Origin: Escherichia phage JS98 | Sequence record: NC_010105.1 | DNA length: 64,000 nt | Reading direction: 5' to 3' (one strand) | Shown: in pieces, positions 3,603-61,986 of the stretch | Numbering within the stretch: the stretch's first letter is position 1 | How the letters are laid out: each line of letters starts with the position of its first letter | Program-made: the position numbers and the translations under genes | The notes under the pieces: model-generated | The model's database searches: none | What the model saw: the letters and a program-made list of their open reading frames with translations, nothing else | What the model was told of the DNA's origin: nothing

Positions 3603-3632
3603 AACAATTCTCTCGTTGAGTCGGTAAAACTC

Positions 3633-3662
3633 ATCTTAACATAGAATTTTTAACTTGTAAAC
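3633..3662 (-). promoter_or_regulatory. T4-type early promoter (-35 GTTTACA, 17 nt spacer, -10 TAAGAT)
   Basis: rc of 3656-3662 is GTTTACA; -10 at 3633-3638; about 30 nt upstream of the 3602 start codon. Confidence 0.5.
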
Positions 3663-3688
3663 AGGAATTTTGTACTTTAATGCAAAAT

Positions 3689-3702
3689 GGGCCTTGCGGC
3701 CC
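3689..3702 (-). terminator. Hairpin GGGCC-TTGC-GGCCC 5 nt downstream of hoc stop
   Basis: On the - transcript the stem is followed by AUUUUGCAUU. Confidence 0.55.
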
Positions 3703-3706
3703 TTAA

Positions 3707-4555
3707 TTAATAAACGTAATCGTATATAATACCAGCTTCTAAAGCGGTGCGATGAATAATTCGTCCATTACGAGATTCTTGTACATCAACCTCCGGATAA
3801 TCGGTAATCATTTTTTGAAGTGTATATCGGTGCAAATAATACGGGCTATCTGGGTCATCAGTTTTCCAGTCTTGTCCGGCAAGAGTCATTTTCTGAATTT
3901 CATCCATAACCCACCAACCACACCAGATATAAGCTGAATTACGTACTGGCAATGGATGAACGTAAGGTAATTCGCCATCTGGAACAGGTGCGACTTTAGC
4001 TGTGACTGTTACATTACCAGTTTTTGTGACAGTTGCCTGGTTATAATCTGTAGCAGATACAACAACAGAAACTTCAATTAACTGGGAACCTTCGGCGCTT
4101 GTGTCGATTGCTAAAGTATCCGTGGTGCCAACTACAGGAGAACCGTCTTTCTTCCAAGAATAGGCAAAAGTAGCACCAGCAGGCGCACCGGCTACAGTAG
4201 CTTTAAAAGAAGCCGGAGTTCCTTCAGGAACATTAATTGATTCTGGGGTTAATGTAACAGAAACACCTGACATTGTTTTATTCTGGATAGTTAAAGTTGT
4301 CTCAGCCTCAGCAGTTTCCGGTTCACCGTCTGCCGGAGTGGTAGTTGCAACAACTTTAATAGTCTTACTGCCTGCTGGACCAACAGCGACATAAGCCATT
4401 GCTGCAGTTACAGAAGATTGAGGAACGCCATCAACGGTCCAGACAAATGATTCGGTACCTTCAGCTGCAGCACCGGAACCAGTCGCAGTGAAATTGGTTG
4501 TTGCTCCAATAACGGCCGTAGCCGCCAAAGGAGCAATATCTACGGTATAAGCCAT
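3707..4555 (-). CDS. hoc: Hoc, highly immunogenic outer capsid protein (Ig-like repeats)
   Basis: 282 aa, T/V/A-rich beta-sandwich-like repeats then conserved C-terminal capsid-binding-like region; position after rnlB block and before inh as in T4. Confidence 0.75.
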   Translation of the reverse strand: MAYTVDIAPLAATAVIGATTNFTATGSGAAAEGTESFVWTVDGVPQSSVTAAMAYVAVGPAGSKTIKVVATTTPADGEPETAEAETTLTIQNKTMSGVSVTLTPESINVPEGTPASFKATVAGAPAGATFAYSWKKDGSPVVGTTDTLAIDTSAEGSQLIEVSVVVSATDYNQATVTKTGNVTVTAKVAPVPDGELPYVHPLPVRNSAYIWCGWWVMDEIQKMTLAGQDWKTDDPDSPYYLHRYTLQKMITDYPEVDVQESRNGRIIHRTALEAGIIYDYVY

Positions 4556-4564
4556 AATAAACCC

Positions 4565-5236
4565 TTATTTTAAAGTGATAAAAGATGAGTTACGAGTTTC
4601 TCGTACTAGAACAGACCCATTACGATTGATGTAATAAATCAAGCTGAATAGCGTTTGGTGTGCGGTAGGATGTTGGAAACTGGTTGGACGTTCTTTCCAG
4701 TCCGGAGTCTCAGAAATCCACTGATAAATCCACCATGGAACAGTACAGAATCCAGGGTTCTTACCGATAAGCAAAAGATTAGGACTGAAGTTTTCGGGTA
4801 AAGAGAACACAGGTTTTTCCGATTCAATAACCTTGGTTACAGCCTCTTTGAATTTCTCTTCGACAAACGGGACATCCTCTTCAATAATCTCTACCTTAGG
4901 AAGTTCGGCTACCTCTATTACTTCAACAACCGCCTCAGGAGCATCGAACAGCACGGTTGCTTCTTCTTTAGCTGGTTCTGCACCTTCGATAAAATCGTTA
5001 TCACCGGTGAGTTCGTCAGCAGCATCAATCAAATCAGAAATAGACAAACCTTCGGTTTCTGGGAGTGGTTCGTCAGCCAAGGCTTTAAGCCCTTCAGAGA
5101 TATCGATAATCAAATTATCAAACGAACGGGTTTTCTTAAGTTTTAAACCGAACTGTTCGCCGTATTCGATTAACTTAGCTTTAGCTTCTTTTTTATCTTC
5201 GAGTGCACGAAGCTCTTCAATATATTGAGTATCCAT
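4565..5236 (-). CDS. inh: Inh, inhibitor of prohead protease
   Basis: 223 aa acidic protein at the T4 inh position (between hoc and uvsW); late promoter upstream. Confidence 0.65.
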   Translation of the reverse strand: MDTQYIEELRALEDKKEAKAKLIEYGEQFGLKLKKTRSFDNLIIDISEGLKALADEPLPETEGLSISDLIDAADELTGDNDFIEGAEPAKEEATVLFDAPEAVVEVIEVAELPKVEIIEEDVPFVEEKFKEAVTKVIESEKPVFSLPENFSPNLLLIGKNPGFCTVPWWIYQWISETPDWKERPTSFQHPTAHQTLFSLIYYINRNGSVLVRETRNSSFITLK

Positions 5237-5253
5237 AATTAGTCTCTTGTTGG

Positions 5254-5261
5254 TGTATAAA
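5254..5261 (+). promoter_or_regulatory. Late promoter TATAAATA (uvsW)
   Basis: Exact TATAAATA about 30 nt upstream of uvsW ATG. Confidence 0.6.
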
Positions 5262-5267
5262 TATAGT

Positions 5268-5275
5268 TATATTTA
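5268..5275 (-). promoter_or_regulatory. Late promoter TATAAATA (inh-hoc operon)
   Basis: rc of TATTTATA; about 30 nt upstream of inh ATG; divergent with the uvsW late promoter. Confidence 0.6.
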
Positions 5276-5291
5276 TAACTGAGAATTACTT

Positions 5292-15126: not shown

Positions 15127-15417
15127 TTATTTACGGAACGAAATGAAACCTGCTGCTGTCATTAATGGCTGCTTTTTAACAAAGACCGTAATAGAAATAG
15201 GAGCTTCAGATTCAAGCTGGCCGGTTACTACACCATTAAAGATATTTTCAGTTTGTTCGGGTTGTGAAAAATTTTCAATTGGACGTAAGTCGAACTGCTT
15301 GTCTTCGCCGAAAACTCGACGTAATTCATTACCGACTGCACTGTCGAACTCTTCAGAAGCAGGGATAACGTTTTCAACTACCAGTTCTTGACCGTTAAAG
15401 CGGAATGCAGATTTCAT
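15127..15417 (-). CDS. Hypothetical early protein (alt.-x position)
   Basis: 96 aa ORF with SD-ATG and its own early promoter. Confidence 0.55.
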   Translation of the reverse strand: MKSAFRFNGQELVVENVIPASEEFDSAVGNELRRVFGEDKQFDLRPIENFSQPEQTENIFNGVVTGQLESEAPISITVFVKKQPLMTAAGFISFRK

Positions 15418-15445
15418 AATGTTCTCCTCATGTTTGTGTAAGGTA

Positions 15446-15475
15446 ATAGTACCACATCCTTGTGGTGTTGTAAAC
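15446..15475 (-). promoter_or_regulatory. T4-type early promoter (-35 GTTTAC, 17 nt, -10 TACTAT)
   Basis: rc of 15469-15475 and 15446-15451; conserved leader CTTACACAAACATGAGGAGAAC before the ATG. Confidence 0.55.
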
Positions 15476-48105: not shown

Positions 48106-48113
48106 GAGGTATT

Positions 48114-49235: not shown

Positions 49236-49257
49236 GGAACCTTCGGGTTCCTTTTTC
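49236..49257 (+). terminator. Intrinsic terminator GGAACC-TTCG-GGTTCC + TTTTT after gene 35
   Basis: Perfect stem, UUCG loop, T5 tract. Confidence 0.7.
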
Positions 49258-49270
49258 GTTTTCTACAGCC

Positions 49271-49278
49271 ATAAATAT
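49271..49278 (+). promoter_or_regulatory. Possible late promoter (CATAAATA) for genes 36-37
   Basis: One mismatch to TATAAATA, about 33 nt upstream of gene 36. Confidence 0.35.
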
Positions 49279-49310
49279 ATAAAAGGCTATAACTCCCAAA
49301 GGAAACTCAA

Positions 49311-49958
49311 ATGGCAGATTTAAAATTAGGTTCTACAGCAGGAGGTTCGGTATTATGGCACCAAGGTAATTTCCCCTTAACGCCTGTATCAAATGACCTT
49401 CTTTACAAAACGTATAAAGTTTACACCGAGTATAATAAACCTCAAGCAGTTGATAACGATTTCGTTTCAAAAGCTAATGGTGGTAATTATAAGAACAACG
49501 TGTATTTTGAAAAAGGTTTGACCTTTAATGATACTAATGGATATGGTATTAAATTAGGAGCAAGAACCGGCGGAGCCCCTTTCACAGCTTCTTTCCGTAT
49601 TAAAGGTGCTTTTGGATATGAAACGGAAGATGGTACTCCGTTTATGATATTTGACCCAAATACAACAGTTGGTGCTAAACGTCTTACTGTAATGGGTGAT
49701 TCGTTATTCCGTCAAGTTTATGATGAATCAGGCCGCGTATTCAGCCCAGGCAACACCCCTACTAAAGCTCAAGTTGGATTGTCATTAGTAGATAACGCAA
49801 AACAGGTCCAAATAAATAATACTAATATGCAAACAATGACTGGGGTACTTGCGGCTCCTAACTTCATTTCATTAAATCCGGCCTCTGACGCAGGACATGT
49901 TCCGCGTTTCGACCAGATTGTTATTAAAGATTCTATCCAAGATTTTGGTTATTATTAA
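49311..49958 (+). CDS. 36: Long tail fibre hinge connector distal gp36
   Basis: 215 aa; T4 position. Confidence 0.8.
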   Translation: MADLKLGSTAGGSVLWHQGNFPLTPVSNDLLYKTYKVYTEYNKPQAVDNDFVSKANGGNYKNNVYFEKGLTFNDTNGYGIKLGARTGGAPFTASFRIKGAFGYETEDGTPFMIFDPNTTVGAKRLTVMGDSLFRQVYDESGRVFSPGNTPTKAQVGLSLVDNAKQVQINNTNMQTMTGVLAAPNFISLNPASDAGHVPRFDQIVIKDSIQDFGYY

Positions 49959-49966
49959 GAGGCATT

Positions 49967-52900: not shown

Positions 52901-53209
52901 CGTTGTAAGTCGGAAATTAAGCTTATAGAGAATGCCCAAGAGAAATCTAAACTCTTAGGTGGTTATACTTATCTGCTTAAAAACTCTGTCACAGATGAAG
53001 TTAAACCATCTGCAGGTTTAATTGCTCAGGAAGTTCAAGAAGTATTGCCTGAACTTGTGACTGAAGATAAAGAGACCGGCTTACTTCGTTTAAACTATAA
53101 CGGTATTATCGGTTTAAATACTGCTACTATCAACGAGCATACTGATGAAATCAAGGAATTGAAATCTGAAATTGCTGAGTTGAAAGCATTAATTAAATCA
53201 TTATTATAA
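49967..53209 (+). CDS. 37: Long tail fibre distal subunit gp37 with C-terminal intramolecular-chaperone-like domain
   Basis: 1080 aa; C-terminal ...[14 protein letters not shown]...GGYTYLLKN...[15 protein letters not shown]... resembles S74-type auto-chaperone domains. Confidence 0.85.
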
Positions 53210-53212
53210 GAA

Positions 53213-53228
53213 AGGGCCCTCGGGCCCT
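53213..53228 (+). other. Hairpin AGGGCC-CTCG-GGCCCT between genes 37 and 38, immediately 5' of the gene 38 SD
   Basis: Perfect stem; followed by GGAGGTTTTT ATG. Confidence 0.45.
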
Positions 53229-53238
53229 GGAGGTTTTT

Positions 53239-54027
53239 ATGGCAGTAGTAGGAATTCCCGGTTGGATTGGAACATCAGCAGTGGCTGAAACAGGTCAACG
53301 TTGGATGACAGCAGCTTCTAGAGAATTGCGTCTTGGTAACCCATCTTGGATGTCGCAATTTGCTGGTCGGTCCCGTGAGATTATTCACACCCTTGGCGCA
53401 GACCACAACTTTAACGGGCAATGGTTTAGAGACCGTTGTTTTGAAGCCGGTGCCGCACCTATTGTGTTTAATATCACCGGTGATTTAGTATCTTATACTA
53501 AAGATGTTCCATTGTTCTTTATGTACGGTGATACCCCTAATGAATACGTTACTTTGAATATTCACGGCGGGGTCCATATGTGGGGACGTGGTGGTAACGG
53601 TGGGACCCGTGTTTGGATAGCAGGTACAAATGGTGGTGATGTAATTCAAAACGACATTGGAGGCCGACTCCGTATCTGGAACTATGGCGTTATAGCTTCA
53701 GGTGGTGGCGGCGGCGCCGGATGTGCTTCAAATAACTCTTGGCTTGAAGCAGGTACAGCCGGTGGCGGCGGTGGTAGACCATATGGATTAGGTGGTACTA
53801 ATGGCGCCGTAATGCCTGGCGGCAACGCTAGTTATACCGGACCAGGTGGCGGTGGTAGCTTTGGCGGACAGTGGGGTGGTGGTAATGGTGGCGACGCAGG
53901 CGGGGCTGGTGGCGGCGCTTACGGTCGAAACGTTAAATACGGCTCGCAAGGCGGAGCCGGGCGCGCGGTATTCGGAAGTTCTCCTTCATGGGGCGCTACA
54001 GGCACTATCTACGGCTCATGGTTATAG
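53239..54027 (+). CDS. 38: Receptor-recognising adhesin gp38 (T2-type, glycine-rich motifs)
   Basis: 262 aa; conserved N-terminus [11 protein letters not shown]; C-terminal half has multiple poly-Gly blocks separated by short variable segments. Confidence 0.85.
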
Positions 54028-54038
54028 TACATAAGCGC

Positions 54039-54046
54039 TATAAATA
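54039..54046 (+). promoter_or_regulatory. Late promoter TATAAATA (holin t)
   Basis: Exact motif about 20 nt upstream of the t ATG. Confidence 0.6.
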
Positions 54047-54064: not shown

Positions 54065-54718
54065 ATGGAACCAAAAGTAGGAATATCAATACCCGACCTA
54101 CTTTTTGGACTTCTTGATAGAATTTTTAAAGATAATGCGACCGGGAAAGTTGTTTTTTCCCGGGTACTAGTTATTGTTCTATTATTTTTAATGGCGGTAA
54201 TCTGGTATAAAGGTGATGCACTTTTAGATGCGTACAGGGATGCTTCATATGCCTCATACACTGAAATGATAAGGCAAGACCAGGATAACAGATTTAAAAT
54301 TGCAGCTATCGAGCAAATCCAGATAGTCCACTCGTCAAGTGGAGCAGACTTTACAGCAATATATTCTTTTAGGCCAACCAACCTTAACTACTTTGTGGAT
54401 ATGGTGGGATATGAGGGGATATTGCCTGATACAGTCGACGAAAAAAATTTAGGTGGGTTTCCAATAGATAAAACTTCGGCGGAATATTTGGCGGGGGTTA
54501 ATGGTAATTATTTTGAATCCAGTACGGAATCTGTATTCTTACCAACAAAGAAAAAAAGCAGCTTCGCATATATGTTCAGCTGCCCGTTCTTTAATTTGGA
54601 AAACGTTTATGCAGGCACAGTCTCGCTGTACTGGTATAAGCAAAAACCTAACCTTGGTTTTGATAGGCTTTCTGCTATGTGTGGACAAGCAGGTCGTACG
54701 CTTGGGCGTACACGTTAG
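54065..54718 (+). CDS. t: Holin T
   Basis: 217 aa; matches recalled T4 holin T (LDRIFKDNATGKV, single N-terminal TM, PTKK). Confidence 0.9.
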   Translation: MEPKVGISIPDLLFGLLDRIFKDNATGKVVFSRVLVIVLLFLMAVIWYKGDALLDAYRDASYASYTEMIRQDQDNRFKIAAIEQIQIVHSSSGADFTAIYSFRPTNLNYFVDMVGYEGILPDTVDEKNLGGFPIDKTSAEYLAGVNGNYFESSTESVFLPTKKKSSFAYMFSCPFFNLENVYAGTVSLYWYKQKPNLGFDRLSAMCGQAGRTLGRTR

Positions 54719-54990
54719 AATCCGGAGGTATACATCATAAGATAACGGTGTATATCTTCGAATCCTTCGTTAAATTGTTCAATAATTTGTTCAATTTCAT
54801 CTTCAGATAAACTTTTAAACAACTTGTTAAACGATACATTGTTTAACTCATTCCCATTCTCATTTCTCAATCCCAACTCATTCAAAAACGCGATAAACAC
54901 ATCGCGCTTCATCGTAATATCTTCCCGGTCGGTTTTAATCAAAATTGAAGTTATAGTAACAATTTCAGAAACGATTTCAAATTTAGTCAT
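54715..54990 (-). CDS. asiA: Anti-sigma70 factor AsiA
   Basis: Matches recalled T4 AsiA (ITSILIK..REDI, FIAFLNE, EQFNEGFE..YRYL.MYT); ATG at 54990 (track start 55005 is TTG). Confidence 0.85.
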   Translation of the reverse strand: MTKFEIVSEIVTITSILIKTDREDITMKRDVFIAFLNELGLRNENGNELNNVSFNKLFKSLSEDEIEQIIEQFNEGFEDIHRYLMMYTSGF

Positions 54991-55040
54991 TTTTAATTTA
55001 CTCAAGTATTCAATAAGACATTCAATTATTCAGTAAGGGT

Positions 55041-55069
55041 ATTATACTATTATTCCTCTGGGTTGTACA
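55041..55069 (-). promoter_or_regulatory. Candidate early promoter of asiA (TGTACA-N17-TATAAT)
   Basis: rc motif with consensus -10 but imperfect -35. Confidence 0.35.
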
Positions 55070-55214
55070 CATGATTTTCCATCTGTACAACATATTCCTG
55101 ATACATCTGTTCAACTGGTTCCTGGAACTTAAAATCTGCTCCAAGGAATTCCTCAAAGCAAGACTGTTCGCGTGTACGCTGGCCAGTAATGGTGTTCTCT
55201 AAGTTATGACTCAT
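55050..55214 (-). CDS. Small protein (asiA.1 position)
   Basis: Manually read 54 aa ORF MSHNLENTITGQRTREQSCFEEFLGADFKFQEPVEQMYQEYVVQMENHVYNPEE. Confidence 0.4.
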   Translation of the reverse strand: MSHNLENTITGQRTREQSCFEEFLGADFKFQEPVEQMYQEYVVQMENHVYNPEE

Positions 55215-55303
55215 AATGATTCCCCTTGTGCTTCTGCTTACGTTTGGACTGCATTTCAGTTTTCTTCTTATCCTTATGGACAGACGCCTTATTGAAATCG
55301 TGC

Positions 55304-55582
55304 TTAGCTACCAGGTTGTTCATGCAATTCCCTTAATTTGTATTCAAGATAGTTAATAATTGCTTTATTTGTTGCAATATACATATCACGTAGGAAGGGT
55401 TTCAGACCTTCTCTAACTCTATACGTGTTATCACTAATATCCTTTATATATTCATGGTCTAAAGCATCCCAAGCCGGTTGGTTGACATAAGTTCCCCAGT
55501 TGTCTTCAACCATAACATTCAGGCGTTTAATATGGTTGATATGGGCTTCGATTGCATCAATCTGGAGTTGTTTAAGATTCAT
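55304..55582 (-). CDS. arn: Arn, anti-restriction nuclease
   Basis: 92 aa (T4 Arn is 92 aa) at the T4 position between asiA and motA. Confidence 0.7.
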   Translation of the reverse strand: MNLKQLQIDAIEAHINHIKRLNVMVEDNWGTYVNQPAWDALDHEYIKDISDNTYRVREGLKPFLRDMYIATNKAIINYLEYKLRELHEQPGS

Positions 55583-56070
55583 TAGTAAAGGTCCTCAGAG
55601 TAAAGTTCTTTTTCACTACCACCACGTTCAATACGAACTTGATTAGCATATGTTGCAATAATCATTGCTTCTTCGCGAGTCCAATAATTTGAGTATTGGT
55701 CGATAAATCCTTGGTCATCACCGCAAACATGCTCTGACACAAGTTTATCACTTACTTGGTCAAGCACTTCTGCCATATCTTTTGAATAATGACGAGCTCC
55801 TGGAATAACCAGAGTCCCACCGTCTTTTAACTTAAAGCGATTGGCTGCGCATACAATTCGACGTTGGTATTTTTCATTGTTATTCCAATGAGCAATCTGC
55901 CAACAGATTTCAGGAACCTCTTCCAAAACATCCTCTTCCGAATATTCAGTGTAGTCACCGTAGGCCCGTAATTTGGCCGCTAAGCTTTCAGGCGTCTCGC
56001 GAGAAAGAGCTTTATCTAATAAAGCCATACGGTCTTTAAAGGATAATTCTTTACCTTTTAATGGGTTCAT
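55582..56070 (-). CDS. Hypothetical protein (arn.x), tentative macro-domain-like motif
   Basis: 162 aa; [24 protein letters not shown] loosely resembles a macro-domain NAAN...GGG block; weak. Confidence 0.4.
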
Positions 56071-56414
56071 TTGAAAATCACCTTATGGCCGTTATCTTTA
56101 GCAAATTCTTGAATTTTGGTGGCTGTTTCAATTAAATCACCTTTATAATAGGATGATAATTTAATATCGACCGATTGGCCAGCACCATGCGAAGTTATGT
56201 TTACCTTTTCTATAAAAATAATCTCAAGAAACCGCAATAACTGCATACCGAATTCAAGATGAACATTGTCAATATGAAGGTTGAGTTGGTAAATTTTCTT
56301 AATACCGTTTACTAAAGCTACACGCTCGTCCCAATCATTACGCTGCTCTTCAATCAATTTAAGGGAATGACCTTCACCGTCCCAGTTAAGTTCCATCGGA
56401 ATCATTTGAACCAT
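56067..56414 (-). CDS. Hypothetical protein (arn.x)
   Basis: 115 aa ORF. Confidence 0.5.
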
Positions 56415-56731
56415 CCTTTAACACGTTGCCATAAAGTTTTCTGTTGAGCTTTATTAACACCAATTGAACGAATAACAGGTTGTGATTCCTGGTATTCTTT
56501 GTAGTCGGCTTTATAGACTTCATAAGCAGCCGGAACAAAGGTGCTGATGGCTGCCATAAAGTTCTTACGAATTCCCATAGAAGCTTCAGAACCACCACGG
56601 ATGATTAAGTATTTACCCGCTTTAATCTTGACAATAGTTCCAAGATAAGCGCCATGGTACCAAATATCCCAACCTTCTTGAGTAGGTTCTGCACAACGAC
56701 GAAGTTCATTAACAATATTCAGCTTGTTCAT
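56402..56731 (-). CDS. Hypothetical protein (arn.x)
   Basis: 109 aa ORF. Confidence 0.5.
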   Translation of the reverse strand: MNKLNIVNELRRCAEPTQEGWDIWYHGAYLGTIVKIKAGKYLIIRGGSEASMGIRKNFMAAISTFVPAAYEVYKADYKEYQESQPVIRSIGVNKAQQKTLWQRVKGWFK

Positions 56732-56749
56732 AATAATTTCCTCAGTCAG

Positions 56750-57382
56750 TTAAATTGCGTTGGTTACGGTTTTGATAACTTCAGATGATACGTTTTGGAA
56801 GTCGATATAAGTATTCTTACCACCGGTCTTAATCTTAACATCAAGATTCAAAGAAGTAAACACTTGTTTTTCTTTATCGGTCATATTATAACCGAAGATA
56901 CGCATCATTCCGTCACGACGGACTTCGATTTGACGAATACCATTGGTACGTTTAGCGAATCGAACTTCAATATTGCTACGGTTTTCAGCGATTTCACGAA
57001 TCTCGATACGGTCTTCTAACAAAGATTTAACTTCATCAGCCAATACTACCATTTCAGGAGTAACACCACGTGAACTGCGAGTTTTACGTTTTTCCAACAT
57101 CTCTGGAGCATTTTCAGAAGCGAACAGGTCGGCAGCTTTTTGAACTAGGTCCATTGCTTCACCTGTAGCCACCAGTCCATCACCAGATTTTTCGATGAAT
57201 CCTTTCTTAATCAATACACCGATGTTAGAGTTAACTACCGCTGCACTAAATTGTTCACTCAGGGCTTCACGGACTTCGCCTGAAGTGATGAAGTTATGCT
57301 TGATGATATGTACTAAGATTGAAGCGGTTTTTTCATTCAGGGCGTCTTCAGAAGCTTTGATGATATAAGTAATTTTAGACAT
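56750..57382 (-). CDS. motA: MotA middle-transcription activator
   Basis: 210 aa; matches recalled T4 MotA (MSK.TYIIKAS, NSNIGVLIKKG..EKSGDGL, KRTNGIR, RIFGY). Confidence 0.9.
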   Translation of the reverse strand: MSKITYIIKASEDALNEKTASILVHIIKHNFITSGEVREALSEQFSAAVVNSNIGVLIKKGFIEKSGDGLVATGEAMDLVQKAADLFASENAPEMLEKRKTRSSRGVTPEMVVLADEVKSLLEDRIEIREIAENRSNIEVRFAKRTNGIRQIEVRRDGMMRIFGYNMTDKEKQVFTSLNLDVKIKTGGKNTYIDFQNVSSEVIKTVTNAI

Positions 57383-57405
57383 TTTAATCTCCGATAACCA
57401 TTTAT

Positions 57406-57445
57406 TTGATAGGTCTATAGTATCATGTTTAAAGCAGAAGTAAAC
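57406..57445 (-). promoter_or_regulatory. T4-type early promoter of motA (40 bp identical to 57731-57770)
   Basis: ttgataggtctatagtatcatgtttaaagcagaagtaaac; rc gives GTTTAC, 17 nt, TACTAT. Confidence 0.6.
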
Positions 57446-57486
57446 TTTATTTTGAGCTCTTTTTCAAGAGCTCTGGTAAAAATTAC

Positions 57487-57702
57487 TTAGATTGATAGGT
57501 CTTTAATCTCAGCGATTAAAGCAGCTTTTCTTTCACGAAGTTTTTCCAGTTCACGACCATTAGAGCCGCGAACTACTAAGGAATTTATCTCCACTTCCAA
57601 CCAATTTAGTTTTTCAACTAGTTCTTTACGTTTGGCATTCATACCAGGTTTAACTTTACCGAAACGGATGGTAGCGTTTTGGGTATTTTTCATCTTATTC
57701 AT
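57487..57702 (-). CDS. Hypothetical protein (motA.1 position)
   Basis: 71 aa basic coiled-coil-like ORF with own promoter. Confidence 0.5.
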   Translation of the reverse strand: MNKMKNTQNATIRFGKVKPGMNAKRKELVEKLNWLEVEINSLVVRGSNGRELEKLRERKAALIAEIKDLSI

Positions 57703-57730
57703 TTTTGTGTCTCCATTTCACTCTGTTGTT

Positions 57731-57770
57731 TTGATAGGTCTATAGTATCATGTTTAAAGCAGAAGTAAAC
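57731..57770 (-). promoter_or_regulatory. T4-type early promoter (duplicate of the motA promoter)
   Basis: Identical 40-mer to 57406-57445. Confidence 0.6.
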
Positions 57771-57795
57771 ACTTTTTTCACTAAACCCAAAAAAA

Positions 57796-57811
57796 GGAAC
57801 CCGAAGGTTCC
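57796..57811 (-). terminator. Intrinsic terminator GGAACC-UUCG-GGUUCC + U7 after gene 52
   Basis: Perfect stem; AAAAAAA on + strand gives a U-tract on the - transcript. Confidence 0.7.
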
Positions 57812-57912
57812 TTACTTTTTAAAGTGGGCCGCTATTAAACCTATAGCTATGCCCGTTGCCAGGCCTAGGATAACAGCAAAGATACAGAGTAACAAGAACT
57901 CGACTCCAAGGC

Positions 57913-59241
57913 TCATAGAGCCTCCAAATCTTTAACATACTCGGTTACAACATCAGTGGTTTTCCAGTATTGATGCTCTTCCTTCTTAGCCTTGGCTTCC
58001 AAAGCCAGTTTCTTAGCTTCATCGGACGTGATATGGAAAATATTCATTGCTACGAGTTTATCAGCGTATTCACCATAGACTTTATTGCTGGCCAATTCTT
58101 CGGTTAAAACCTTACGGGTCTTACCTTGGATAACCACTACGCCATCAATAACATCTTTGATAAATGTGGCTTTAGCCAATGCCAGTTTGAAAGCTTCTTC
58201 GGTTTCGATGATTTTACCATCAATACGTTTTTGTACAAAGGTCTTACGGACCTCAACGAAATCACGAATCAGTTCAACTACATCTTCGTAAACCTTAAGT
58301 TTACCTTTCTCATTAATGACGGTCAGGTTTTGCGAACGACGTTCGATTAACCCGAAGTCCTTCATGATTTTTTCATGCTTCTTATTTTCTTCAGTAGGCA
58401 ATTCATATTCTTTACGAATCTTAACCTTGAAGCCGAAACCATTCTCGTCACAGTCGTCATCATACGTGATATACCCTTTGTCTTCTAAAGGGTCCAGTAC
58501 CTTGGCCACATACGTTTCACGGTCGTATTTGTACGGGATTTCTGTGATATGCATTTGGGTTCGAGATGTGAACTTATACGTGCCTCGTAGTTCATAACTA
58601 CCCGGTTCAATCTCAACCACATCACCACGGAATTCCGGATAAGCCACCTTAGGCTTGGTTACGCGTTTTTCTTGAAGAACCTGCAATACAGCTTTCTTAA
58701 CAGAATCAAAACTATGAGGAAGAATATTAGTTGCATAACCAGTTGCAATACCGGAAATACCATTAAGAAGAACAGTAGGAATAATAGGCAGATAAAAAGC
58801 TGGTGGCTTATGTTCGACATCCGCATGAACCGGAGCATATTCTGTATCCTTATAAACCTTTGCGAAATTAGTTCCAATTCGTGCAAAAATATAACGAGAG
58901 GCTGCCGCCTTTTGAACTAATCGAGAACCAAAGTTACCTTGGCCATCCAACAGCGGGAAGTTGTTGTTCCATGTGTTAGCCATCAAAGCCCCTGCTTCTT
59001 GAGCAGAACCTTCACCGTGGTGATAACCAAGGTCGGCTACACCACCTGCAATAGAAGCCAGTTTGTGGAATTTTTCTTTATTACCACGAGCCATATCAAG
59101 ACAACGAGCAACTACAAAACGTTGTACAGGTTTAAAGCCATCAATCATATTTGGAATGGCTCGGTTTTCGACAGTATACATTGCATAAGCCAATGCTTCA
59201 TTGTCGATAATACTTTTTAAACCACGAGATGTTAATTCCAT
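57913..59241 (-). CDS. 52: DNA topoisomerase II medium subunit gp52
   Basis: 442 aa (same as T4 gp52); GyrA-like N-terminal cleavage-religation region. Confidence 0.9.
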   Translation of the reverse strand: MELTSRGLKSIIDNEALAYAMYTVENRAIPNMIDGFKPVQRFVVARCLDMARGNKEKFHKLASIAGGVADLGYHHGEGSAQEAGALMANTWNNNFPLLDGQGNFGSRLVQKAAASRYIFARIGTNFAKVYKDTEYAPVHADVEHKPPAFYLPIIPTVLLNGISGIATGYATNILPHSFDSVKKAVLQVLQEKRVTKPKVAYPEFRGDVVEIEPGSYELRGTYKFTSRTQMHITEIPYKYDRETYVAKVLDPLEDKGYITYDDDCDENGFGFKVKIRKEYELPTEENKKHEKIMKDFGLIERRSQNLTVINEKGKLKVYEDVVELIRDFVEVRKTFVQKRIDGKIIETEEAFKLALAKATFIKDVIDGVVVIQGKTRKVLTEELASNKVYGEYADKLVAMNIFHITSDEAKKLALEAKAKKEEHQYWKTTDVVTEYVKDLEAL

Positions 59242-59245
59242 AATT

Positions 59246-59386
59246 TTACCATACTAGTGAATGAATAGCCATAATAACATCGGAAATAAAAAGCACAACT
59301 TGGATAAGACCGAATATTACTCCATAATACAGTGCTACCAATAAAGCAGCAAGGGCCACCGAGTAGCCCAAGATTTTCTTAATCAT
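59246..59386 (-). CDS. Small membrane peptide, 46 aa (52.1-like)
   Basis: Manually read [46 protein letters not shown]; ATG overlaps the upstream stop. Confidence 0.45.
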   Translation of the reverse strand: MIKKILGYSVALAALLVALYYGVIFGLIQVVLFISDVIMAIHSLVW

Positions 59387-59540
59387 TTTTAATCATCTTA
59401 AGTAAACCGACAAAAGTAGAAAGAACCCAGCCAATAAACAGAAAACTTAAGAATACCGGACCAGGGGTCCACACGCCTAAAAAGAAGCAAACCGAACAGA
59501 CTATAGCCGTAATAAGTTCAATAAAAACTATGATAATCAT
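59379..59540 (-). CDS. Small membrane peptide, 53 aa (ac-like cargo A)
   Basis: Manually read MIIIVFIELITAIVCSVCFFLGVWTPGPVFLSFLFIGWVLSTFVGLLKMIKND; preceded by hairpin + UAAUGAGGAAAAU SD. Confidence 0.45.
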   Translation of the reverse strand: MIIIVFIELITAIVCSVCFFLGVWTPGPVFLSFLFIGWVLSTFVGLLKMIKND

Positions 59541-59550
59541 ATTTTCCTCA

Positions 59551-59628
59551 TTAGCGTCCGAAGACGCCTTTAGTTTTAAGATTGTTACGATAGAACTGCA
59601 TCACATGTTCGTTATGGGAATTACTCCG
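59551..59628 (-). pseudogene. stp-like copy lacking a start codon
   Basis: rc encodes (R)[24 protein letters not shown] in the stp frame, but the first codon is CGG and no in-frame ATG lies upstream. Confidence 0.5.
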
Positions 59629-59689
59629 TAATACAGTGTTACCAATAAAGAAGAAAGGGCTACCGAGTAACCCAAGATTTCTTAATCAT
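59625..59689 (-). pseudogene. Truncated, frameshifted copy of the 46 aa membrane-peptide gene
   Basis: About 89 percent identical to 59321-59386 with a 1 nt deletion; reads MIKKSWVTR*. Confidence 0.5.
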
Positions 59690-59835
59690 TTTTTGGTAAA
59701 GGCCTGTAGAATCAGAACAAATGCCAATATGAATTGTGGAATGGCCTGAGAAATGACCGAAGTTTCACCCGTTGTAATAGTCCAAATACCTAGATAAGTC
59801 CAAATACCCGCAGCAAAACCTTGTAAAATATTCAT
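59686..59835 (-). CDS. Small membrane peptide, 49 aa (cargo B)
   Basis: Manually read MNILQGFAAGIWTYLGIWTITTGETSVISQAIPQFILAFVLILQAFTKK; preceded by hairpin + UGAGGAAAAU SD. Confidence 0.45.
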   Translation of the reverse strand: MNILQGFAAGIWTYLGIWTITTGETSVISQAIPQFILAFVLILQAFTKK

Positions 59836-59842
59836 ATTTTCC

Positions 59843-59923
59843 TCAAGGGCGTCCGAAGACACCAGTTAATTTCAGATTATGACGGTGCCATTGCATCACA
59901 TGTTCATTATGGAAGTTACTCAT
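59843..59923 (-). CDS. stp: Stp peptide (26 aa)
   Basis: rc encodes [26 protein letters not shown], matching recalled T4 Stp ([26 protein letters not shown]) at 20 of 26 positions. Confidence 0.7.
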
Positions 59924-60089
59924 AGATACCACACATTTTGCATAAACGTTCAAAACAGATATAACCACCACATAAACACATCATGACGGCAACTTTATCA
60001 TTAAAGGGCATACCGAAAGCCATAAAGGCTCCGGTAACTACTAATAAAGCTAAAACAAATAGATAACCCATTACAAAGAACGTTCTCAT
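59916..60089 (-). CDS. Small cysteine-rich membrane peptide, 57 aa
   Basis: Manually read [57 protein letters not shown]; abuts the ndd stop. Confidence 0.4.
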
Positions 60090-60090
60090 A

Positions 60091-60540
60091 TTAATAACTC
60101 TGTAGAACGAATTTAAAGTTATCAGCCAACATGCGGTTCATTTCTTCCAGGGTCTGAAGGTCGGAACTATGGTTGCGAGTGAAAGCCATTGCAATTTGAC
60201 CCTTACCAAAACCTGTAGTCAGTGGTTTCATTTTAGAAGCAGGTACATAAAGAACTTCATACACTACACCATTCACAGCCATAGTACGAGCTGATTGAGA
60301 ACGTTTCTTACGGATGTTAGCTACAATACCATCAAGACCTTGAGCTGAACGTTGGTTGCCGACATAAAAGCGTGCAGCTACGACACGAGAATCTGCTTCA
60401 CCTTTAACAAAGAAGTAGAAGCCTGGTTGAGCCGAGATTTCTTTAGAAGGCTTACCATTTTGGTATTCGCCATTCTTAACATAAGCAACAGTAGTAGCAC
60501 CAGCAGACAGAACGTTACCGCGAGTCATATAAGTATTCAT
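60091..60540 (-). CDS. ndd: Ndd nucleoid disruption protein
   Basis: 149 aa; matches recalled T4 Ndd ([51 protein letters not shown]). Confidence 0.9.
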
Positions 60541-60589
60541 ATCAATTTCCTCAGTAGATTAATGTTTTGTTATCCAGTCAACGAGAACC

Positions 60590-60618
60590 ATTATAACATG
60601 ATTCTCGAGGTTGTAAAC
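60590..60618 (-). promoter_or_regulatory. T4-type early promoter of ndd (GTTTAC-N17-TATAAT)
   Basis: rc gives consensus -35 and -10. Confidence 0.6.
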
Positions 60619-60962
60619 TATTTTTGTAGCTGTTCTAAAATAAATCCGCTTGTATAAAAGGAAGCATTATATACCTTATTCAGTGGGTTCAAAGCGCGTC
60701 CATAGGTATCACGTAATTCTTTGATAACGTTTTCATAACTCACGTAGTAAGCACTATGATAACCAGGGTCCATACTCATACGAAATTTAATGAACCGATA
60801 AAAGCCTGTTTCCGGGTCTTGAACGAAAACGAAATCAGCACTCGTCATAATCTTTGAATGTACGCCGGGAATCATACTTTGATTGAATGCCACCGATGCA
60901 TCCTGAAGGCTGAGTTGTTTAAAGAACATTACCTTAGCATTACCAAAAAATACTTTAGACAT
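60618..60962 (-). CDS. Hypothetical protein (ndd.x)
   Basis: 114 aa ORF. Confidence 0.5.
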   Translation of the reverse strand: MSKVFFGNAKVMFFKQLSLQDASVAFNQSMIPGVHSKIMTSADFVFVQDPETGFYRFIKFRMSMDPGYHSAYYVSYENVIKELRDTYGRALNPLNKVYNASFYTSGFILEQLQK

Positions 60963-60976
60963 GATAATTTCCTCAA

Positions 60977-61222
60977 TTATTCAGGGTCAACTGCACCATC
61001 CCACAGGTCAACTTCTTCTGATAATTCCATCAGTTCATCAACCGTGAAACACTCGGTATTATTTTCAATAGCAAAACGCTTTTGATAAAAAGGATAATCC
61101 AAACAGTTTTCAGTACGAATGGGCCGCTCGCTATTATCCATTAAAGGAGAAATACGAATCAATTGTTGACCATTACCTAAGACAAATTTTTCACCAACTG
61201 CGATATCTTTAAAAAGTTTCAT
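60977..61222 (-). CDS. Hypothetical protein (ndd.x)
   Basis: 81 aa ORF. Confidence 0.5.
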   Translation of the reverse strand: MKLFKDIAVGEKFVLGNGQQLIRISPLMDNSERPIRTENCLDYPFYQKRFAIENNTECFTVDELMELSEEVDLWDGAVDPE

Positions 61223-61238
61223 AATATTTTCCTAAGAA

Positions 61239-61427
61239 TTAAAGAACTTCTTCAATTTGAATGTATTCGCTATATCCTTCCTCGATGAGGATATCGCGGG
61301 CGCAGTCAGCGCTGATATAAAAATTAAAGCTAACGGTAGTAATCACTTTACCGTGCAGCTTTACTTTATAAATTCGATTACCCATAATATTTTCCTCAGA
61401 AGTTAAAGAATACACGTACATGGTCAA
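61239..61427 (-). CDS. Hypothetical protein (likely start at the internal ATG near 61385)
   Basis: The internal ATG is preceded by UGAGGAAAAUAUU SD. Confidence 0.45.
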   Translation of the reverse strand: MTMYVYSLTSEENIMGNRIYKVKLHGKVITTVSFNFYISADCARDILIEEGYSEYIQIEEVL

Positions 61428-61506
61428 TCATAAAAACGATTGGGAAAATGCTCAATACCATTAACAACACAAACATGTTCCAAATTGCTTTAAGTAAGTT
61501 TTTCAT
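61396..61506 (-). CDS. Small membrane peptide, 36 aa
   Basis: Manually read MKNLLKAIWNMFVLLMVLSIFPIVFMIDHVRVFFNF; own early promoter. Confidence 0.35.
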   Translation of the reverse strand: MKNLLKAIWNMFVLLMVLSIFPIVFMIDHVRVFFNF

Positions 61507-61532
61507 AATCATCTCCATTAGTTGATAGGTCT

Positions 61533-61561
61533 ATAGTATCATGTCTAATGGAGATGTAAAC
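61533..61561 (-). promoter_or_regulatory. T4-type early promoter
   Basis: rc GTTTAC, 17 nt, TACTAT. Confidence 0.5.
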
Positions 61562-61651
61562 TGATTTATGCTAATTTCCACAACAATAAACTAAAGCATA
61601 TACAAATAATTGGAATACAAGTCATCCAAATAAGGCACCACGTTTTGCTAC

Positions 61652-61912
61652 TCATAATACTATCTCTTTTATTTCCATAAACCCATCATTCAGTGCATGG
61701 CGGAGTTCATAATGGATATCTATACCATCGACATTATCTAATTTACCGTCGATAAGTTTTTGTAAATCTTTTTTTGACGCTATCAAAGGACGAAGAAATC
61801 TACAATTAGAAAGGGATAATTCCGTAATAACATCTTCACCTGATGCATCGTACATTGCGGCAACAACTTTACCCGTAACTTTGTGTTTAGCGTAATATAA
61901 TTTGATATCCAT
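61652..61912 (-). CDS. Hypothetical protein
   Basis: 86 aa; own early promoter. Confidence 0.5.
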   Translation of the reverse strand: MDIKLYYAKHKVTGKVVAAMYDASGEDVITELSLSNCRFLRPLIASKKDLQKLIDGKLDNVDGIDIHYELRHALNDGFMEIKEIVL

Positions 61913-61943
61913 TTTGTTTTCCTCTCATGTAGTTGATAGGAAG

Positions 61944-61973
61944 ATAGTAACACCATCCATGGCGTATGTAAAC
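61944..61973 (-). promoter_or_regulatory. T4-type early promoter
   Basis: rc GTTTAC, 18 nt, TACTAT. Confidence 0.45.
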
Positions 61974-61986
61974 ACTTATTTTAAAA

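Follow-up and report, generated by a model that had tools for sequence, protein, structure and literature searches.

Putative early-promoter cassettes on the minus strand

The window, meaning the whole stretch of 64,000 nucleotides analyzed, is from a Dhakavirus, a T4-like coliphage of the JS10/JS98 type, with about 97% identity to JS10 and a matching gene order. A position-weight scan found 17 putative T4-type early promoters, all on the minus strand; none was found on the plus strand, and shuffles yield 0-1. Searching for the pattern GTTTAC-N16-18-TAnnnT returned 18 minus-strand and two plus-strand matches. A sequence-only reading of this DNA had counted at least 14 minus-strand sites. That count was right. 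A start codon follows every cassette with 14-50 nt from the -10 to the ATG. The promoters are laid out as GTTTAC, then 17-18 nt, TGn, and TAnnnT. TG is present at the extended -10 position in 15 of the 17, and the region upstream is 75% AT (genome, 60%). Start sites are predicted by rule, at the seventh nucleotide beyond the -10. The cassettes, each named by the position of its -35 G, are as follows (SD, Shine-Dalgarno).

3600-3677, minus: cassette 3662, upstream of gp24.3 homolog (ORF 3393-3602, ATG 3602); -35 3662-3657, -10 3638-3633; weakest of the matches (score 18)
15415-15490, minus: cassette 15475, upstream of alt.-3; -35 15475-15470, -10 15451-15446; small in-spacer hairpin ACCACA/TGTGGT (15466-15461 and 15456-15451)
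23886-23973, minus: cassette 23958, upstream of 30.7-like ORF (23523-23888); -35 TTTTAC 23958-23953, -10 23935-23930; 12-bp stem TTTGGTACAGGT/ACCTGTACCAAA (23952-23941 and 23927-23916) either side of -10
24292-24379, minus: cassette 24364, upstream of 30.8-like ORF (23962-24294); -35 GTATAC 24364-24359, -10 24341-24336; spacer TCTCCGGT (24357-24350) pairs with SD region ACTGGAGA (24307-24300), one G.U
27584-27661, minus: cassette 27646, upstream of 184-aa ORF (27032-27586); -35 27646-27641, -10 27622-27617; 10-bp stem CGGTAGGACT/AGTCCTACCG (27636-27627 and 27616-27607) either side of -10
30021-30102, minus: cassette 30087, upstream of 153-aa ORF (29562-30023); -35 30087-30082, -10 30063-30058; stem TGGGAGCA/TGCTCCTA (30074-30067 and 30058-30051), 8 positions, one G.U
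31317-31393, minus: cassette 31378, upstream of alc; -35 31378-31373, -10 TAGTAT 31355-31350; spacer TCTCCTCAT (31371-31363) pairs with SD ATGAGGAGA (31335-31327)
39308-39381, minus: cassette 39366, upstream of frd.1; -35 39366-39361, -10 39342-39337; 9-bp stem TAAGGCTAT/ATAGCCTTA (39359-39351 and 39338-39330) brackets and overlaps -10
39594-39672, minus: cassette 39657, upstream of frd.3, conserved core; -35 39657-39652, -10 39634-39629; 10-bp stem AGGTCTATAG/CTATAGACCT (39650-39641 and 39632-39623)
40678-40753, minus: cassette 40738, upstream of frd.2a, conserved core, without internal stem
43946-44023, minus: cassette 44008, upstream of rnh; -35 44008-44003, -10 TATAAT 43985-43980; discriminator AACCT (43979-43975) pairs with SD AGGTT (43956-43952)
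54988-55085, minus: cassette 55070, upstream of asiA; -35 GTGTAC 55070-55065, -10 TATAAT 55046-55041
57380-57460, minus: cassette 57445, upstream of motA, conserved core
57700-57785, minus: cassette 57770, upstream of variable 71-aa ORF (57487-57702), conserved core
60538-60633, minus: cassette 60618, upstream of ndd; -35 60618-60613, -10 TATAAT 60595-60590; stem CGAGAATC/GGTTCTCG (60607-60600 and 60589-60582), one G.U, brackets -10
61504-61576, minus: cassette 61561, upstream of ndd.4-like small ORF (61396-61518; start likely ATG 61506), conserved core; 12-bp stem CATCTCCATTAG (61556-61545)/CTAATGGAGATG (61521-61510, 3' arm counted manually on the sequence) spans SD and two in-frame ATGs
61910-61988, minus: cassette 61973, upstream of 86-aa ORF (61652-61912); small spacer hairpin ACGCCA/TGGTGT; discriminator CTTCC pairs with SD GGAA(A)

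About half of the cassettes precede named genes (alc, motA, asiA, ndd, rnh, frd.1, frd.3, and alt.-3), and a cassette is present at only 15 of the 73 minus-strand junctions tested. The idea that they mark every small early ORF thus did not hold. A core repeat proposed for at least five genes does exist in five exact copies (39618, 40699, 57406, 57731, and 61522; 0 expected), as the 22-mer TTGATAGGTCTATAGTATCATG rather than a 23-mer. The leader motif (C)TATCAA(C), thought to be part of the shared architecture, is found in seven of 17 cassettes with near variants at 31378 and 39366, and so marks a sub-family. Identical stretches between cassettes reach 41 bases; cassettes 57445 and 57770 are twins, identical from the -35 through +5, and both JS10 and RB14 have members of the 30087 family at other genes. 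At least 11 of the 17 positions agree in 12 of 136 spacer pairs, compared to 0.12% of random pairs, suggesting common descent.

T4-family early promoters have GTTTAC at the -35, TGn, a -10, and an AT-rich upstream region (Nolan 2006, PMC1524935; Hinton 2010, PMC2988021). The promoters in the window share with them GTTTAC at -36 to -31, the extended -10, the A/T-rich upstream element, conserved positions beyond the hexamers, and a C-rich -3 to -1. They differ in having a sub-family with an invariant 17-mer, TACTATAGACCTATCAA, through the discriminator and first transcribed bases, and in their hairpins, which those descriptions do not mention.

Hairpins within and before the cassettes

Perfect inverted repeats of 9-12 bp with the 5' arm within the -35/-10 spacer occur in six of the 17 cassettes, while perfect repeats of at least 9 bp occur in 1.1% of random 75-nt windows (binomial P ~2e-8). 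Spacer and cognate downstream region can pair over at least 9 bp in 27% of cases versus 4% with the downstream region of another cassette, in sets that, like those used for the G.T/A.C, covariation, and 105-cassette comparisons below, include orthologs and paralogs; P values from them overstate independence. The embedded stems are of two sorts, with either the -10 bracketed or the spacer paired with the Shine-Dalgarno of its own gene. All four inverted repeats of the sequence-only reading are present and longer than the 7-9 bp claimed (12, 10, 9, and 8 bp). The one at 36430/36451 was taken for part of an early cassette but belongs to the ATGCTT MotA-box promoter of nrdA. The sequence-only reading had overlooked perfect repeats of 10 bp at 27646, 12 bp at 61561, and 9 bp at 31378. 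The nrdA promoter and the hairpins lying apart from the promoters are listed here.

3689-3702, minus: separate hairpin GGGCCGCAAGGCCC, T-rich tail, upstream of cassette 3662
24392-24413, minus: terminator-like hairpin ATGGGACTCTTCGGAGTCCCAT, UUCG loop, then TTTTG, upstream of cassette 24364
36429-36467, minus: middle-type promoter of nrdA, MotA box ATGCTTA, not an early cassette; 8-bp stem AGGTTCTA/TAGAACCT (36458-36451 and 36436-36429) surrounds its -10
40755-40774, minus: terminator-like UUCG hairpin GGGAAGACTTCGGTCTTCCC, then TTTTT, directly upstream of cassette 40738
57454-57474, minus: hairpin AGAGCTCTTGAAAAAGAGCTC upstream of the motA cassette, no T-run behind
57794-57813, minus: terminator-like UUCG hairpin AAGGAACCTTCGGGTTCCTT, then TTTTT, upstream of cassette 57770

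Hairpin position follows the space before the promoter. All five cassettes with a gap of 41-52 nt before the -35 have a separate hairpin (at cassette 3662 the preceding stop codon is 44 nt away), and all eight with a stop codon abutting the -35, as at alt.-3, have an embedded one. Across 105 distinct cassettes, orthologs and paralogs included, the two kinds are negatively associated (OR 0.16, p=0.002). Of the five separate hairpins in the window, three combine a UUCG loop with four or five T in a row, resembling intrinsic terminators. Tuerk and colleagues are said to have described C(UUCG)G hairpins between T4 genes in 1988. The CUUCGG loops at 57813-57794, 40774-40755, and 24413-24392 resemble them, a match limited to the separate version, as the embedded stems have unrelated loops containing the -10.

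The internal stem is absent from cassettes 55070 and 40738, and at the former, upstream of asiA, a hairpin was looked for and none found. At the frd.3 locus the spacer is with or without a stem depending on the phage, suggesting that some loci can do without it. The alc promoter retains a hairpin across genera though its position shifts and the arms are unrelated.

The likeness to T4-type promoter/stem-loop cassettes noted from the sequence fits the promoter-early stem-loops (PeSLs) of RB49 and phi1 (Arbiol et al. 2010, PMC2839356). Both are repeated composites in which an AT-rich region and an early promoter of the sigma-70 type are combined with a stem-loop, an SD, and an ATG, and both precede small genes of unknown function. 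In both, G-T pairs occur in the stem-loops, most of which sit in the -35/-10 spacer or extend into the -10, and recombination between neighboring copies deletes or swaps the intervening gene. The RB49/phi1 elements have TTGACA rather than GTTTAC (T4 type) at the -35, GGGG/CCCC-rich stems not seen here, and conservation over ~100 bp compared to about 55-60 bp here; the spacer-SD pairing subclass is not mentioned in the PeSL papers. PeSLs of T4/PST and KVP40/nt-1 are also similar, with a T4/PST consensus in the same family (TTTACW, N17, TAYWAT) and middle-promoter versions (PmSLs) that match the nrdA site (Comeau et al. 2014, PMC4122927). That paper places its stem-loops just upstream of the promoter, whereas about half are embedded here.

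RNA pairing and alternative explanations

Since the 5' arm lies ahead of the transcription start predicted for the cassette's own promoter, the hairpin would be unable to form in RNA from that promoter. Within the stems, non-Watson-Crick positions are G.T in seven cases and A.C in one, a small count that includes orthologs and paralogs. The closing pair in the 27646 family runs through a C-G, U.G, U-A series, and the 30087 family has a double change from G-C to C-G. Spacer and SD covary around an identical core (CTCCAGTAG/CTACTGGAG, CTCCATTAG/CTAATGGAG, and CTCCTGTAG/CTACAGGAG), and at the 24364 site the MN04 counterpart, TCTCCAGT, makes the pairing perfect. In a formal covariation test on a set with orthologs and paralogs, the stems beat 500 of 500 shuffles. 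Opening the ribosome-binding region is predicted to cost an extra +6.9-13.6 kcal/mol in read-through RNA at four of the 17 cassettes (+6.9 at rnh and +8.3 at 61973), while all 35 control gene starts stay below 7 kcal/mol. Compensatory and G.U substitutions suggest pairing at the RNA level, in a helix that only read-through transcripts would be able to form.

The T4 e, soc, 49, and I-TevI hairpins are comparable in that the SD and/or AUG is in a helix of long upstream transcripts, and the DNA for the 5' strand includes a promoter whose transcripts, being free of the inhibitory arm, are translated (Uzan and Miller 2010, PMC3014915). There the internal promoter is late (gp55, TATAAATA) and the logic delays expression, whereas here a putative sigma-70 early promoter provides its spacer as the 5' arm and the cassette is dispersed.

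All the hairpins, embedded ones too, might instead be terminators or attenuators for upstream transcripts. The PeSL authors proposed this function and demonstrated it for one RB49 stem-loop, which was as effective as the rrnB T1 terminator in lowering lacZ expression (PMC2839356). The separate hairpins at 24413 and 40774 have terminator-like scores and T-runs, and the mutual exclusion of upstream and embedded hairpins suggests they do the same job. However, AUCAAC or AAACAA-type sequences rather than U-runs follow the embedded stems, none of which a terminator scan picks up, leaving a classical terminator role for them unsupported, and SD-pairing stems with loops of 23-42 nt make poor terminator hairpins. 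We regard one terminator role for all as rather unlikely.

Action at the DNA level, as palindromic operators for a phage protein shutting off early promoters or as cruciform/hairpin recombination hot spots that endonuclease VII might cut, would suit the operator-like repeats around the -10. The shut-off of T4 early promoters is not fully understood (PMC3014915, PMC2988021), and one crossover was placed in a PeSL loop with speculation on a binding protein (PMC2839356). It is nevertheless very unlikely, as only complementarity is kept while the arm sequences vary by cassette, arguing against a sequence-specific protein. Tolerance of G.T over A.C and the stepwise U.G path are strand-specific and RNA-like, the arms can be anywhere from 8 to 42 nt apart with an SD able to serve as the 3' arm, and hairpin position depends on the upstream stop codon, a feature of the message. 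That same position rule, together with enrichment over random, shuffled, and non-cognate spacer/leader pairs, three independent stem families with compensatory changes, and the alc hairpin, makes it scarcely credible that the repeats are functionless by-products of cassette duplication or templated (quasi-palindrome) mutation in ordinary promoters, even though stemless cassettes and orthologs exist and the CTATAG of the conserved core, itself palindromic, favors chance extension.

Gene exchange and the probable role of the cassettes

Single shuffling events can be made out clearly. Between twin cassettes 57770 and 57445 is a slot that contains unrelated genes, three in all, depending on the phage, with other genes in JS10/MN04/IME281 and in IME341; it is empty in WG01 and KIT01, where a single chimeric cassette remains. 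In dhabil, a 290-bp insertion is flanked by duplicated GTTTACATCTC. The up to 41 identical bases in common suggest homologous recombination between cassettes. These events bear out the proposal that cassettes drive shuffling only in part, as breakpoints occur at nine of 15 cassette junctions and 26 of 58 plain gene junctions (Fisher p=0.22), an enrichment that is not significant, which is a point of difference from the RB49/phi1 PeSLs. Many plain deletions terminate at SD-ATG microhomologies. The cassettes are neither the sole breakpoints nor demonstrably preferred ones.

With a probability of roughly 0.7, we read the cassettes as sigma-70-dependent early promoters of a PeSL-type promoter-plus-leader family, mostly with an insulating hairpin specific to read-through RNA. 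PeSLs as a kind are already published; the hairpin position rule, the two embedded stem types, and the RNA-helix reading are added here. A cassette would comprise ~60-80 bp, from the AT-rich upstream region through GTTTAC, a 17-18 nt spacer with TGn, the -10, and a short leader to the SD and ATG. Most would carry one hairpin with its 5' arm upstream of their own transcription start, formed only in RNA reading in from an upstream promoter. Available space would set its placement: as a separate element where a 41-52 nt gap precedes the -35, or, where a stop codon abuts the -35, encoded within sequence-neutral parts of the promoter. In the latter case the spacer's partner would be either the discriminator/+1 region, leaving the -10 in the loop, or the Shine-Dalgarno of the gene itself.

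The hairpin would thus insulate each module against transcription from upstream. The SD-pairing type would keep the downstream gene from being translated off read-through RNA, and the -10-bracketing type more likely attenuates read-through or protects the upstream message at its 3' end. Homologous recombination at the cassettes would allow the genes between them to be swapped, deleted, or inserted.

Early promoters and their kinship

The gene order of the window is that of JS10 (genus Dhakavirus, Straboviridae): 24, rnlB, uvsW, the baseplate genes, alt, 30, cd, pseT, alc, nrdAB, td, frd, 32, rnh, tail fibres 34-38, asiA, motA, 52, ndd, denB and rIIB. By megablast, JS10 is 97.3% identical over the full length of 36000-44000, and 811 T4-type records match this segment. 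Nearly all early genes of the window are carried on the minus strand. The pattern GTTTAC-N16-18-TAnnnT has 18 matches on that strand and two on the plus strand. An iterated weight-matrix scan placed all of its 17 sites on the minus strand, with 0-1 raw matches in shuffled sequences. All 17 are on the coding strand and are followed by a start codon, 14-50 nt separating the -10 from the ATG, with a Shine-Dalgarno sequence (SD) and ATG at the 3' end. The -35 is an exact GTTTAC in 13 of them (variants TTTTAC, GTATAC and GTGTAC); 15 have an extended -10 TG(n) and all 17 a TAnnnT -10. The 21 nt upstream are 75% A+T, compared with 60% for the genome, and a shared 22-mer is present in five exact copies with none expected. 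Recurrent early-promoter cassettes upstream of genes, as the sequence-only reading had proposed, are therefore real. By sequence the 17 sites are T4-type early promoters of the sigma-70 type, for which immediate-early activity with the unmodified host RNA polymerase is predicted. A generic sigma-70 scan was uninformative as it gave 49 matches with 53 expected and so no excess; only the phage-specific motif discriminates. No Rfam family matched anywhere in the window.

Small ORFs of unknown function lie downstream of eight cassettes. The other genes are alc, motA, asiA, ndd, rnh, frd.1, frd.3, frd.2a and alt.-3. That cassettes mark every small ORF was an overstatement, given that the gene junctions tested comprised 15 with a cassette and 58 plain ones.

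Each cassette is named here by the coordinate of the G of its -35. Similarity between cassettes spans the -35 to about +14 (55-60 bp) and ends about 20 nt upstream of the -35; the upstream 20 nt are themselves near-random between cassettes. Beyond TGn, we know of no sequence requirement in the promoter spacer. Spacers nevertheless match at 11 or more of 17 positions in 12 of 136 pairs, versus 0.12% of random 17-mers. The twin cassettes 57770 and 57445 (the latter upstream of motA) are identical over 41 nt, from -35 to +5. On these similarities the cassettes are related copies, not merely similar signals. Families also reappear before non-orthologous genes and in other genera. That of cassette 30087 precedes 55.2 and e.6 in JS10 and motB in RB14, whose first 50 kb represented the T4 type. 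In T4-like contigs, the stem family of cassette 27646 precedes alc. Thirteen of 42 spacer types occur with at least two leader types, and there is one strict four-combination set, implying crossovers inside the invariant core. In JS10 a 61561-type spacer sits on the nrdC.8 leader, and the pairing is broken there.

Related arrangements were seen at other promoters. The MotA-box (ATGCTT) middle-type promoter of nrdA (36429-36467, minus strand) has a stem around its -10 of the same kind as the early cassettes. In some IMG/VR contigs a MotA box is joined to the invariant core of the early cassettes (ATGCTTAAATGTC..CATA + TACTATAGACCTATCAA), which suggests that promoter class may be switched by exchange of the upstream half. 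After the -10, the leaders of cassettes 24364 and 23958 (23886-24379) agree in 19 of 20 nt (GTACCAAATAATACGAAAACAAACTGGAGAATAAAATGAA); their promoter halves are different. JS10 is without both genes led by these cassettes (30.7-like and 30.8-like); the right junction of the deletion is at the -10/+1 of cassette 24364 and the left at the 30.6/30.7 junction.

Position and pairing of the hairpins

All four inverted repeats described from the sequence alone were found, each longer than described. That at 36430/36451 had been counted as an early cassette and belongs to the nrdA middle-type promoter. Perfect repeats at cassettes 27646 (10 bp), 61561 (12 bp) and 31378 (9 bp) had been missed. A perfect repeat of at least 9 bp within -35 to +45 is present in six of the 17 cassettes (binomial P about 2e-8); the corresponding rates are 1.1% for random 75-nt windows and 1.3% when cassettes are shuffled. 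Fifteen of the 17 have a stem within or beside the promoter, and 55070 is the sole cassette without any hairpin. Folding each cassette inside a longer RNA, together with an inverted-repeat search, gave four classes.

Hairpin classes of the minus-strand cassettes, by coordinate of the -35
Separate hairpin upstream of the -35 (n = 5): 3662, 24364, 40738, 57445, 57770
Stem bracketing the -10 (n = 6): 23958, 27646, 30087, 39366, 39657, 60618
Spacer or discriminator paired with the SD (n = 3-5): 61561, 31378, 24364; weaker, 61973 and 44008
Small hairpin inside the spacer (n = 2): 15475, 61973

Where the hairpin sits follows the room left by the upstream gene. A separate hairpin occurs in five cassettes, precisely those in which the preceding stop codon lies 41-52 nt from the -35; in the eight whose hairpin is embedded in the promoter, this distance is -1 to +3 nt. 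Among 105 distinct cassettes, taken from the window plus seven relatives and mutually non-independent, embedded helices of at least 7 bp and upstream hairpins of at least 6 bp were negatively associated (odds ratio 0.16, p = 0.002). Given this association and the position rule, the two forms appear to be alternative versions of a single function, each located at the earliest available position beyond the upstream coding sequence. The alc promoter varies between lineages. Its spacer pairs with the SD in Dhakaviruses, whereas in T4-like contigs an 11-bp stem brackets the -10. In a third lineage GGGG...CCCC encloses the -35 and a T-rich run comes next, and one contig has just a small hairpin inside the spacer. 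As read from these sequences, a hairpin is retained at alc and its position shifts. RB14 has both embedded types at some promoters, and the arms of its nrdC.8 spacer-SD pair are unrelated to the Dhakavirus arms.

Three of the five separate hairpins have a CUUCGG loop and a T-run; two of these three (24413 and 40774) scored as terminator-like and the third lies outside the scanned region. The embedded stems could likewise be intrinsic terminators, but no U-run follows the stems around the -10 or those pairing with the SD and the terminator scan was negative for embedded stems, so this was rejected as their main reading. Alternatively, the embedded repeats might act as a DNA operator or cruciform, which we rank low. 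Thirty distinct near-perfect stems hold seven internal G.T positions and one A.C. In the 27646 family the closing pair varies: C-G (window), U.G (JS10) and U-A (T4-like phages). Tolerance of G.U and this path are both strand-specific, which favours a helix in RNA over a palindrome in DNA and, as far as sequence can tell, selection of the hairpin as RNA on the transcribed strand.

Own and foreign pairings were compared in 89 distinct cassettes, drawn from the window, the complete JS10 genome and five further Dhakavirus relatives. Of their spacers, 27% form a perfect helix of at least 9 bp with their own downstream region, compared with 4% when paired with that of another cassette. Changes between orthologs keep the pairing: ACTGGAGA is the partner of both TCTCCGGT (window) and TCTCCAGT (MN04), and CTATAGACCT of both AGGTCTGTAG (IME341) and AGGTCTATAG. 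Between loci of the 30087 family, only two paired positions differ (GGGAGC/GCTCC versus GGGACC/GGTCC). Pair counting on the four-sequence alignment A2 was underpowered, 259 of 500 shuffles reaching the observed value, and only its pair types were used.

An IMG/VR search with a 184-aa protein gave five loci, too few for covariation, and was replaced by annotated genomes and a pattern search with the invariant core TACTATAGACCTATCAA. The latter gave 64 loci and, with those already fetched, 93 distinct cassettes. Spacer and SD-leader arms covary around an unchanged 23 nt (CTCCAGTAG/CTACTGGAG, CTCCATTAG/CTAATGGAG, CTCCTGTAG/CTACAGGAG and TCTCCTCATG/CATGAGGAGA). For this helix in 60 distinct core cassettes, 56.2% of cells are paired (51.1 +/- 1.1 in shuffles), 56 cells are changed on both sides (30 in shuffles) and the covariation score is 0.219 (0.154 in shuffles). 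None of 500 shuffles matched any of the three measures, and all slid registers scored lower. Covariation supports a putative pairing of the SD in these cassettes.

Wherever a hairpin is present, its 5' arm is upstream of the predicted start site and thus missing from the cassette's own transcript, in which the helix cannot form. We compared the energy needed to open -14 to +3 around the ATG in that transcript and in read-through RNA arriving from a promoter upstream. The predicted extra cost in read-through RNA is 13.6 kcal/mol for 61561, 8.7 for alc (31378), 8.3 for 61973 and 6.9 for rnh (44008), and 2.1 or less in the remaining cassettes. Among 35 plain gene starts with the same added upstream length, the maximum is 5.1 kcal/mol and none reach 7. 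The SD and AUG are thus predicted to be paired in RNA from upstream and free in RNA from the internal promoter.

We propose, with a probability of about 0.4, that the 17-nt spacer of the early promoter in T4-type phages doubles as a cis anti-Shine-Dalgarno or hairpin arm. Transcripts from the own promoter alone would be translated and RNA from upstream neutralised. This insulator would move with the cassette, be re-tuned to each SD by compensatory change and shift between genera (to surround the -35 or the -10, or to cover the SD), the hairpin being kept.

Gene exchange at cassettes and at plain junctions

Breakpoints were taken from chained blastn of the window against seven relatives (JS10, MN04, IME281, dhabil, IME341, WG01 and KIT01). 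The regions 16900-44060 and 54700-63790 contain 34 distinct events of at least 40 bp with 61 breakpoints, 12 of them inside genes. A few chained WG01 and KIT01 gaps (57445..59620) are chaining artefacts and were left uninterpreted. Nine of 15 junctions with a cassette have a breakpoint versus 26 of 58 plain junctions (one-sided Fisher p = 0.22; seven relatives). Many plain deletions end exactly at the SD-ATG with 7-14 nt of microhomology, for example AGGAAAATATTATG, TTCAAATGA and TATAATGC. With breakpoints also at plain junctions, whole-gene indels are a general property of gene junctions.

Some individual events do involve cassettes. Between cassette 57770 and its twin 57445 is a slot occupied by unrelated small genes, three in all: one in the window, one in JS10, MN04 and IME281, and one in IME341. 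In WG01 and KIT01 the slot is empty and a single chimeric cassette, joined at the shared core, combines the terminator-promoter half of 57770 with the motA leader. A 290-bp gene insertion in dhabil is bounded by duplicated GTTTACATCTC, and IME341 has a gene flanked by two other stem-bearing cassettes in place of cassette 39366. These events, the spacer/leader combinations and JS10 nrdC.8 carry an apparent signature of inter-cassette recombination. The earlier suggestion that cassettes drive gene shuffling is partly supported, by such swaps but not by a significant enrichment of breakpoints; it was overstated, whole-gene indels being about as frequent at plain junctions, where they commonly use SD-ATG microhomologies.

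Other differences from the relatives were noted. IME281, WG01 and dhabil have a 136-bp deletion (61246-61383) that removes the small ORF 61239-61427; its ends both carry the translation-initiation sequence AGGAAAATATTATG, marking a gene-precise indel by SD-ATG homology and not by a promoter cassette. The tandem paralogs frd.2a and frd.2b (40309-40680 and 39922-40305) are a single copy in dhabil, IME341, WG01 and KIT01, and the alignment blocks flanking the deletion share an overlap of 18-19 nt close to the start codons. A 463-bp segment downstream of ndd (59626-60090; ORFs 59686-59862 and 59916-60089), with no cassette or obvious homology at its ends, is absent in JS10, MN04 and dhabil; in IME281, KIT01 and WG01 just 59923-60090 is missing. 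An insertion of about 1.9 kb in JS10, with a tail-fibre-like and a hoc-like gene on the plus strand, begins 4 nt before the -35 of cassette 3662 (window 3666-3723); JS10 also has an extra 370-bp gene upstream of rnlB (window 3279) and an internally different hoc (4282-4317). Tail-fibre genes 34 and 37 and the adhesin gene 38 (44056-54030, plus strand) are mosaic relative to all relatives, with replaced segments (46445-47785, 50163-53239 and 53307-54039) unconnected with cassettes. Two tandem alt (ADP-ribosyltransferase) genes are present, as in JS10 (15475-19689); about 480 bp of this region (18437-18920) is replaced in JS10, IME281 and IME341. IME281 encodes an extra 649-bp ORF, possibly a homing endonuclease, exactly at the rnlA/denA junction (IME281 15840-16490; window 32533-32539).

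Relation to published stem-loop cassettes

The consensus of the T4 early promoter, with GTTTAC at -36 to -31, and its UP/-35/TGn/-10 nature are established (PMC1524935, PMC2988021). The definition of promoter-early stem-loops (PeSLs) comes from RB49/phi1, where the stem-loop takes one of five places: upstream of the -35, across it, within the spacer, across the -10 or just before +1 (PMC2839356). They were extended to T4/PST and KVP40/nt-1, middle-promoter versions included (PMC4122927). The sequence-only reading was right to see PeSL-like cassettes here. Both have a sigma-70-type early promoter, an AT-rich upstream region, a stem-loop, and an SD with a start codon. PeSL copies are conserved up to about 100 bp, whereas similarity here covers 55-60 bp. 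PeSLs are found preferentially in hyperplastic regions before genes of unknown function, and 8 of our 17 cassettes precede such ORFs. PeSLs are also linked to insertion, deletion or replacement breakpoints of close relatives, for which the cassettes here offer individual events without significant enrichment. The PeSL stem-loop is proposed to terminate or attenuate upstream transcription; here, hairpins 24413 and 40774 are terminator-like by sequence and the embedded stems are not. Recombination between PeSL copies is reported to yield mini-circles. JS98-type phages are mentioned in the PeSL literature only for 'PeSL-like sequences' near gene 43, and our literature search, which did not cover the JS98 genome paper (PMC2168658; it may list these promoters), found no Dhakavirus-specific description of PeSLs or early promoters. 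The finding is a published class re-identified in a genus where it was mentioned only in passing, and is not by itself a discovery. Added to the class are a rule for hairpin placement from the distance to the preceding stop codon, sequence evidence of selection as RNA on the transcribed strand, and a subset with predicted occlusion of the ribosome-binding site only in read-through RNA. The PeSL papers (PMC2839356, PMC4122927) make no mention of translation or SD pairing.

In T4 e, soc, 49 and I-TevI, a late promoter is contained in the DNA that encodes the 5' strand of a helix sequestering the SD (PMC3014915). The internal promoter is late (gp55) TATAAATA in those genes but early GTTTAC/TGn/-10 in the cassettes, which by analogy would work like these hairpins and are not members of that system.

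Since JS10, JS98 and other Dhakaviruses are phage-therapy candidates, there is some practical value in knowing which genes are in swappable slots. The most interesting residue, going by sequence statistics and covariation, may be the embedded hairpin confined to read-through RNA and its SD-occluding subclass. If true, the logic of the T4 lysozyme hairpin would no longer be confined to a few late genes but would take in a class of early promoters that is dispersed and mobile, and occlusion of the ribosome-binding site limited to read-through RNA would be a possible way for a compact phage genome to tie early genes to their own promoters.
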